IMG/VR virus record: IMGVR_UViG_2648501498_000009 | Length of the DNA: 8,831 nt | Source of the DNA: a virus | Taxonomy: Duplodnaviria > Heunggongvirae > Uroviricota > Caudoviricetes | Strand: one strand, 5' to 3' | Shown here: positions 8,119 through 8,831 of the stretch, piece after piece | How the letters are laid out: the number at the start of each line of letters is the position of its first letter | Position numbering within the stretch: position 1 is the stretch's first letter | Program-made: the position numbers and the translations under genes | The notes under the pieces: model-generated | What the model was told of the DNA's origin: nothing | Database searches by the model: none | What the model saw: only the letters and a program-made list of their open reading frames with translations

Positions 8119-8831
8119 CTGTCTCTTGATCAGATCTCCTGATCAAGAGACTTCATCACCAGGTAACCCTCAACCATATCCTGAAGTCTGAACCAGCCAT
8201 CCCACATGACGACCCAACCGGGACGGCCTGTGCGTTTGCTGTCATGCCATCGCCCCAGTTTCGCCAGTTTCAGACTGGCCCATTTCAGTGTCGGCGCCTG
8301 TGACGGAAGCGGTTTTCCTTCCAGCTTCACCCACAGCAGTTTCCACTCTGTCGGCGTCAGTATTTTCTCACAGCTGTCATTTTGTGTTTCTTCACTGATA
8401 CCTCCCTGCCGCAGGCCCAGCACCCGCACCGCGATGAACGCCTTGATAACCACCATACGTTCCAGGTTATCCCGGGTCTGCATTCTCAGTGATTCCACAC
8501 ATGTACCACCACTTTTCCACGCCTTATGATATTCCTCTATCAGCCAGCGTCGTTCGTAGTGGCTGACGATACGCCGCGCATCGGCGGCACACGCCACTTT
8601 TTCTGACGTCAGCAGATGCCAGCAGGCACCGTCCTCTGCCTGCTCCCGGCAACAGACATACGTGAGCGGGAGCGCCTGGCCGCTGTTGTCGGGATTTTTT
8701 ATGCTGACTTCGCTGTAACTGATGAACATCCGGGCCTGGCGGGCAGCCCGTCCGCCTTTTTGCATCACATTCAGCGTGTGGCTTCCCGCGGTTGCCAGGA
8801 CTTCCGGCAGTTCGAAGAGCTTGCCGGGTGC
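8119..8831 (-). mobile_element. IS50-like (IS4-family) insertion sequence, partial; inside-end-type terminus at 8119-8137
   Basis: 8119-8137 is CTGTCTCTTGATCAGATCT, identical to the IS50 inside end as I recall it. The transposase stop TGA lies within it, exactly as in IS50. The element continues past the window end. Confidence 0.8.
8130..8831 (-). CDS. tnp: IS4-family (IS50/Tn5-like) DDE transposase, C-terminal ~233 codons; N-terminus lies beyond the window
   Basis: The frame is open from the window edge (…APGKLFELPEVLATAGSHTLN-MMQKGG…). It contains the YREK signature (YERRWLIEEYHKAWK) and NLERMV. It is clearly homologous to, but diverged from, Tn5 Tnp as I recall it. Confidence 0.85.
   Translation of the reverse strand, partial: APGKLFELPEVLATAGSHTLNVMQKGGRAARQARMFISYSEVSIKNPDNSGQALPLTYVCCREQAEDGACWHLLTSEKVACAADARRIVSHYERRWLIEEYHKAWKSGGTCVESLRMQTRDNLERMVVIKAFIAVRVLGLRQGGISEETQNDSCEKILTPTEWKLLWVKLEGKPLPSQAPTLKWASLKLAKLGRWHDSKRTGRPGWVVMWDGWFRLQDMVEGYLVMKSLDQEI

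Follow-up and report, generated by a model that had tools for sequence, protein, structure and literature searches.

The window analysed here, the whole contig JHSF01000110.1 (8831 bp, GCA_001265845.1), carries the early-region genes of a lambda-like prophage (exo, bet, gam, kil, cIII, the repressor gene, cro, cII and O) and closes with 713 bp (positions 8119-8831) that end exactly as IS50 does and encode a transposase that differs from that of IS50. The questions raised by this locus are which insertion sequence (IS) stands there and what it means that conserved ends occur beside a diverged enzyme. We conclude, with a probability of about 95%, that positions 8119-8831 belong to an ISEc13 copy (IS4 family, IS50 group) of which the inside-end half precedes the end of the contig.

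Inside end and stop codon of the element

The IS50R of plasmid pO86A1 (NC_008460; 1534 bp) served as reference; it was located through a 100% match to the Tn5 transposase (Tnp) sequence, and its coding sequence is annotated 'IS4-like element IS50R family transposase'. Its outside end (OE, element positions 1-19) is CTGACTCTTATACACAAGT, while its positions 1516-1534 read AGATCTGATCAAGAGACAG, the reverse complement of its inside end (IE). By direct reading, positions 8119-8137 of the window are CTGTCTCTTGATCAGATCT, an IE on the minus strand with its tip at 8119, which is the predicted site of transposase binding and cleavage. It is identical to the IE of IS50R at 19 of 19 positions, and no match to the IS50 IE with three or fewer mismatches was found in 200 dinucleotide shuffles of the window. 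The transposase frame ends in TGA at 8132-8130, and the stop codon occupies tip positions 12-14 in both elements (8130-8132 on the minus strand of the window, 1521-1523 in IS50R). The initial annotation had stated that the terminal 19 bp and the position of the stop codon within them equal those of IS50, which is borne out by this comparison.

The IE was the same in all ISEc13 copies read, and the first 40 bp of the window end (the IE CTGTCTCTTGATCAGATCT, then the inner repeat CCTGATCAAGAGAC) are identical to those of four full ISEc13 copies. The end begins with CTG and fits the ends of the IS4 family/IS50 group (5'-CT); ends starting with 5'-CT and direct repeats of 8-9 bp are given for the IS50 subgroup in Table 1 of PMC2266710. 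Three GATC (Dam) sites were read at 8128, 8133 and 8141 (within 8128-8144), the first two of them inside the IE, as in IS50. Usage of the IS50 IE is controlled by Dam methylation, and by analogy the sites at 8128 and 8133 probably make use of the ISEc13 IE sensitive to Dam methylation as well.

The transposase fragment and the identity of the element

Positions 8130-8831 (minus strand) hold an open frame with the C-terminal 233 codons and the stop codon of the ISEc13 transposase (C-terminus ...GYLVMKSLDQEI*), the 5' part of which lies beyond the contig end. The fragment spans part of the catalytic domain, with the E of the DDE triad and the YREK motif, and the C-terminal dimerisation region. 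It matched Tn5 transposase/inhibitor structures with E-values of 5e-35 to 5e-36 and scored 270.1 bits against NCBIfam NF033590 (cutoff 160), while the Pfam scores lay just under the cutoffs (DDE_Tnp_1, 22.7 against 23; Dimer_Tnp_Tn5, 21.5 against 26.7). For the full ISEc13 protein, Tnp_DNA_bind and DDE_Tnp_1 were above their cutoffs and Dimer_Tnp_Tn5 reached 24.1 against 26.7 bits. The functional residues of Tn5 Tnp include the catalytic D97, D188 and E326, and also Y319, R322, K330, K333, W298, R342 and N348. Eight of these (W298, Y319, R322, E326, K330, K333, R342 and N348, Tn5 numbering) are conserved in the fragment; D97 and D188 fall outside the window and are conserved in full ISEc13 copies. 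The YREK residues, the signature of which is Y-(2)-R-(3)-E-(6)-K (PMC2266710), are found together with K330 in the segment YERRWLIEEYHKAWK.

Pairwise alignment of the fragment with Tn5 Tnp gave 38.4% identity over 229 aligned residues, which confirms the earlier statement that this half of the transposase is only partly identical to Tn5 Tnp; both window peptides quoted in its support are present, and both Tn5 peptides given for comparison are correct, Tn5 Tnp matching IS50R at 100%. This correctness decides against the reading in which the element is IS50 itself (IS50R/IS50L of Tn5) and its divergence comes from a faulty Tn5 sequence. Although the 19 terminal bp and the stop position are those of IS50R, the Tn5 sequence used is 100% identical to IS50R and the window protein only 38%, and blastn aligns the terminal ~26 bp and detects no DNA similarity past them. 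We regard this reading as refuted.

When positions 8119-8831 were searched by megablast against 5426 complete E. coli genomes, 2477 of them gave a match, 1047 with at least 80% query coverage, and there were up to 32 match places per genome. All 713 bases were covered, at 99.2% DNA identity to two copies in strain A25 (one frameshifted, the other intact) and 96.6% to copies in E2348/69; the copies of both strains carry the RefSeq label 'IS4-like element ISEc13 family transposase', as do nearly all of the full-length matches listed at 96.6% identity or more. At the protein level, the fragment differs from WP_000244363.1 of EPEC E2348/69 at three of 233 residues (S305C, M403A and C410S). By the isoform convention of ISfinder, elements with more than ~90% DNA or more than ~95% protein identity are the same IS. 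Judged against the RefSeq-labelled copies, the values found here (96.6-99.2% of DNA and 230 of 233 residues) place the element in ISEc13. The name rests on the RefSeq annotation of near-identical copies and on its use in papers, being routine in published mobile-element surveys. ISEc13 is already known and named and is widespread in E. coli, and the present copy is an ordinary one.

A new, uncatalogued member of the IS50 group meriting its own name could be argued from the 3.4% DNA difference from E2348/69-type copies and from the absence of this particular insertion from complete E. coli genomes. Such a member is very unlikely given 99.2% DNA identity to ISEc13-labelled copies and 98.7% protein identity to the E2348/69 copy, both within the isoform limits above. 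Of the proposal that this is a distinct IS50-group member, the distinction from IS50 stands (the transposase is ~40% identical to Tn5 Tnp), but the element is not new: it is ISEc13, a catalogued IS to whose RefSeq-labelled copies it is nearly 100% identical (99.2%), and the claim of novelty has to be dropped.

Related fragments were also seen. O157:H7 chromosomes (e.g., NC_011353, 3964315-3964977) contain a single ISEc13-like fragment, ~92% identical at 94-95% query coverage and annotated just as 'IS4 family transposase', and ISEc13-like fragments of 124 bp are also widely distributed among plasmids. Both probably remain from old insertions of a related isoform.

Truncation at the contig end

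An exact-sequence lookup of the O::IS fusion protein (window positions 7756-8139) found 19 contigs, all of 10 kb or less, in which the places listed end at or just past the junction. We infer that the IS is incomplete through a break of the draft assembly at a multi-copy repeat and not through biology. A biologically truncated, dead ISEc13 remnant would also account for the visible 713 bp, and incomplete pieces resembling ISEc13, 124-676 bp long, occur commonly on both chromosomes and plasmids of E. coli; the entire contig, however, stops inside the IS with the frame open, and the 19 short junction contigs are typical of assembly breaks at multi-copy repeats, so that a remnant appears improbable. 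If a full copy was cut by the assembly, ~840 bp more of ISEc13, ending ...ATTTGTGTATAAGAGACAG, would be expected beyond 8831, followed by CAAAACGAG and directly by GGAAAATCCCC, the remaining part of the origin and of gene O.

Full-length ISEc13 compared with IS50 and Tn5

In the E2348/69 and A25 copies, full ISEc13 is 1550 bp long, with the IE CTGTCTCTTGATCAGATCT and the OE CTGTCTCTTATACACAAAT, and in full copies the transposase gene (457 aa) occupies element positions 166-1539; one full copy spans NC_011601 9808-11357. Global alignment with IS50R gave ~62% DNA identity at aligned positions. The OEs of the two elements are identical at 17 of 19 positions. The transposases are 41% identical overall, with 56% in Tn5 residues 1-70 and 38% elsewhere. 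They share the DDE and YREK residues, W298, R342, N348 and the order of domains (PDB 1MUH, 1MUS and 1B7E), and differ by a 9-residue deletion of the ISEc13 protein in the region of Tn5 246-254 and a 13-residue deletion after 372. The 5' leader is longer in ISEc13 (coding sequence from base 166, against 93 in IS50), and a 13-bp hairpin at the IE is present in ISEc13 and absent from IS50.

Two differences lie around the start of the Tn5 inhibitor protein. Tn5 E54 is replaced by Thr in ISEc13, and the inhibitor start M56 corresponds to Gln (CAG, Q52) in full ISEc13 copies, with no start codon aligned. These copies therefore lack a Tn5-type inhibitor start (an in-frame start at M56), and a Shine-Dalgarno-like sequence is missing ahead of the in-frame GTG codons closest to that position (44 and 65).

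Of the full ISEc13 copies read for target duplications, three have 9 bp (CACAGGGAG, CCAGAACAG and CGAAGAGAG) and one has 8 bp, in agreement with the 8-9 bp of the IS50 subgroup (PMC2266710). A 9-bp duplication is likewise made by Tn5/IS50. All five ISEc13 duplications read have the form C...G (CAAAACGAG of the window, CACAGGGAG, CCAGAACAG and CGAAGAGAG of copies L001, L006 and L007, and CCGCTCGG of copy L002), a number too small for a conclusion. The target consensus of Tn5 is the opposite, G...C.

At the outside end, OE positions 12-19 together with CCCC (CACAAATCCCC) form a hairpin with GGGGATTTGTG, which lies immediately internal to the end (copy L002, 4003-4050), and with the hairpin at the IE both ends of ISEc13 thus carry an inverted repeat that overlaps the end. 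A copy in Escherichia whittamii (NZ_JACSQI010000029.1; 99% protein identity) has the OE CTGTCTCTTATACACAAGT, one base (position 4) off the IS50 OE. The engineered Tn5 'mosaic end' has T at position 4, as is common to ISEc13 outside ends.

Conservation of ends across the IS50 group

The ends of 80 loci encoding relatives in species-representative genomes were read. Relatives with transposases 37-77% identical to that of ISEc13 and 33-58% identical to Tn5 Tnp have the same two end types, in this survey CTGTCTCTTGATCA[G/C]A.. for the IE and CTG[T/A]CTCTTATACACAA.. for the OE, and in most relatives the stop codon stands at tip positions 12-14. The same end types occur in elements of Scandinavium and Pantoea (73-77% to the ISEc13 transposase), of Photorhabdus and Xenorhabdus (~55%) and of Vibrio, Alishewanella and Shewanella (~50%), and these relatives differ from ISEc13 in host, in their lower identity and in variable IE positions 15-18. 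The exact IS50 IE was found in Scandinavium (77% to the ISEc13 transposase), Pantoea (73%), Xenorhabdus bovienii (55%) and three elements in gammaproteobacterial MAGs (44-46%), and also in Parashewanella, where the transposase is 39% identical to ISEc13 and 58% to Tn5.

Conserved ends beside a diverged enzyme are a property of the whole IS50 group and not special to ISEc13. An exact IE beside an enzyme of ~40% identity follows from group-wide conservation of the ends and of the N-terminal DNA-binding domain, and the significance given to this combination in the initial annotation was overstated. Homologues of Tn5 transposase have been compared before (De Palmenaer et al., 2008, PMC2266710, citing Reznikoff et al., 2004).

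In some relatives (Vibrio and Xenorhabdus) a 9-bp duplication emerges from the flanks only when GG/CC beyond the CTG tips is counted as part of the element, and in several others the target is palindromic, so that the duplication reads 8-10 bp. A literature search for the Vibrio-type end sequence found nothing.

A hairpin at the inside end

A perfect 13-bp inverted repeat lies at 8121-8151 (GTCTCTTGATCAG and CTGATCAAGAGAC, with a 5-nt loop). Its outer arm is IE positions 3-15, and its inner arm (8139-8151) encodes the last residues K-S-L-D-Q; in the transposase mRNA the hairpin is 3'-terminal and includes the stop codon in its stem. RNA folding of 8121-8151 gave -21.6 kcal/mol (z = -3.6). Directly after the stem, the phage flank of the present insertion contributes AGCTCGTTTT, and a simple scan scores this arrangement as terminator-like.

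The inner arm is kept in relatives down to ~48% protein identity (Vibrio, Alishewanella, Shewanella and others), being present in most members at or above 48%, and is absent from the Photorhabdus/Xenorhabdus branch and from the IS50 clade. Its core GTCTCTTGA is near-invariant (16 of 19 alignment rows). Each of the 18 members with Ser uses TCT for it, and 18 of 19 use CTT for Leu, whereas the codons directly upstream vary freely, which argues for selection on the nucleotides. Among 19 relatives, all seven consensus pairs show little or no variation and compensatory changes are absent, the sole hint of covariation being one relative with a G·U pair in place of an A·A mismatch; because one arm is the transposase-binding end, covariation cannot tell whether the hairpin acts as RNA or as DNA.

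One possible role of the hairpin is to stabilise the 3' end, or to act as a terminator stem, independently of context, for a message that must always run into host DNA. Alternatively, the inner arm could be a second, oppositely oriented half-site for transposase binding. The reading that we prefer is that of a putative 3' stabiliser or partial terminator, with the stop codon 11 nt from the tip of the element. That the inner copy of the tip (8139-8151) is functional and specific to the ISEc13 clade is a tentative proposal, with the odds against it. A separate and equally tentative proposal is that the ISEc13 transposase acts on IS50/Tn5 ends, because the ends are identical or nearly so; if it does, resident ISEc13 (~30 copies in EPEC E2348/69) could remobilise Tn5-derived insertions.

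Two further terminator-like hairpins with T runs, at 8738-8756 and 8675-8693 (plus strand), are antisense to the transposase gene, and the region has four terminator-like sites against 0.9 expected. The antisense hairpins could block transcripts that come in through the inside end, or be due to chance.

A perfect 35-bp palindrome outside any ISEc13 copy, CTGTCTCTTGATCAGATCTCCTGATCAAGAGACAG, consists of two IE tips around ATCTC. It was read in E. coli Rosetta2(DE3) (NZ_CP083274, 3634549-3634583) between lldD and trmL, inside a GC-rich repeat, and of 5426 complete E. coli genomes, 792 cover 80% or more of an 81-bp query that spans it. Judging from its sequence, the palindrome corresponds to the expected remainder of a deletion between two AAGAGAC copies, one in the inner repeat and one in the ISEc13 OE. 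The 'nearly precise excision' of Tn10 is a comparable event. The lldD-trmL locus is a polymorphic repeat region in which neither a clean empty site nor a duplication could be read.

Insertion into the replication origin of a lambda-like prophage

Homologous prophages cease to match the window at 8115-8118. The presumed left copy of the 9-bp target duplication is CAAAACGAG at 8110-8118, as inferred from full ISEc13 copies, and the right copy would lie beyond the contig. From alignment with lambda and HK140, positions 8104-8118 (plus strand) are the left 15 bp of iteron 1 of a lambda-type origin, ATCCCTCAAAACGAG, which is separated by the IS from the remaining GGA; iteron 1 spans 39034-39051 in the lambda record, and the break corresponds to a cut just after lambda base 39048. 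The same break interrupts gene O after codon 121 of 299. The truncated gene (7756-8142, plus strand) consists of codons 1-121, seven codons encoded by the IS (LSLDQIS) and a stop codon, and its O part is 98% identical to O of HK140 and 933W and carries the Pfam domain Phage_rep_O. With O inactivated and iteron 1 destroyed, as judged from lambda biology, the prophage should probably be replication-defective.

The 37-mer across the O|IS junction had no occurrence in GTDB representative genomes, and no place in the 5426 complete E. coli genomes covered at least 80% of a 401-bp junction query. We also considered whether origin iterons are a hotspot for ISEc13, given megablast matches that reach 13-17 nt into the phage flank; the loci concerned proved to be unremarkable chromosomal positions close to pgmB and rcnB, and the candidate was rejected as chance similarity of the flanks.

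Within gene O, the sequence AGATCTGACCAAGCGACAG at 7884-7902 (plus strand) matches the reverse complement of the IS50/ISEc13 IE at 17 of 19 positions. This IE-like site is 216 bp from the real IE, with the tips facing, and no shuffle had a site with three or fewer mismatches. It is native to O of lambda and HK140 and was thus not made by the IS; its likeness to the IE is probably due to chance.

Mechanism and implications

A literature search found no transposition assay or other functional study of ISEc13, and its mechanism is therefore drawn from Tn5. In that scheme, a DDE transposase would bind the two 19-bp ends and form a synaptic dimer, the element would be excised via hairpin intermediates on the transposon ends, and integration by staggered joins would give a target duplication of 8-9 bp. 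Here, ISEc13 landed in iteron 1 of the lambda-type origin, within prophage gene O. The traits observed that are relevant to this mechanism are the ends, the catalytic and DNA-contact residues, the 8-9 bp duplications of sister copies and the high copy number in some genomes.

As a discovery the element has little weight, ISEc13 being named and abundant, and conserved ends being the rule in the IS50 group. The relation of ends to transposase identity across the group, the clade-specific hairpin and the IE common to ISEc13 and IS50 could help the engineering of Tn5-like transposases. Locally, ISEc13 explains the end of the contig, and the O::ISEc13 junction, present in 19 contigs from several samples, is a lineage marker for a lambda-like prophage that lacks the replication initiator O and part of its origin and is probably defective.
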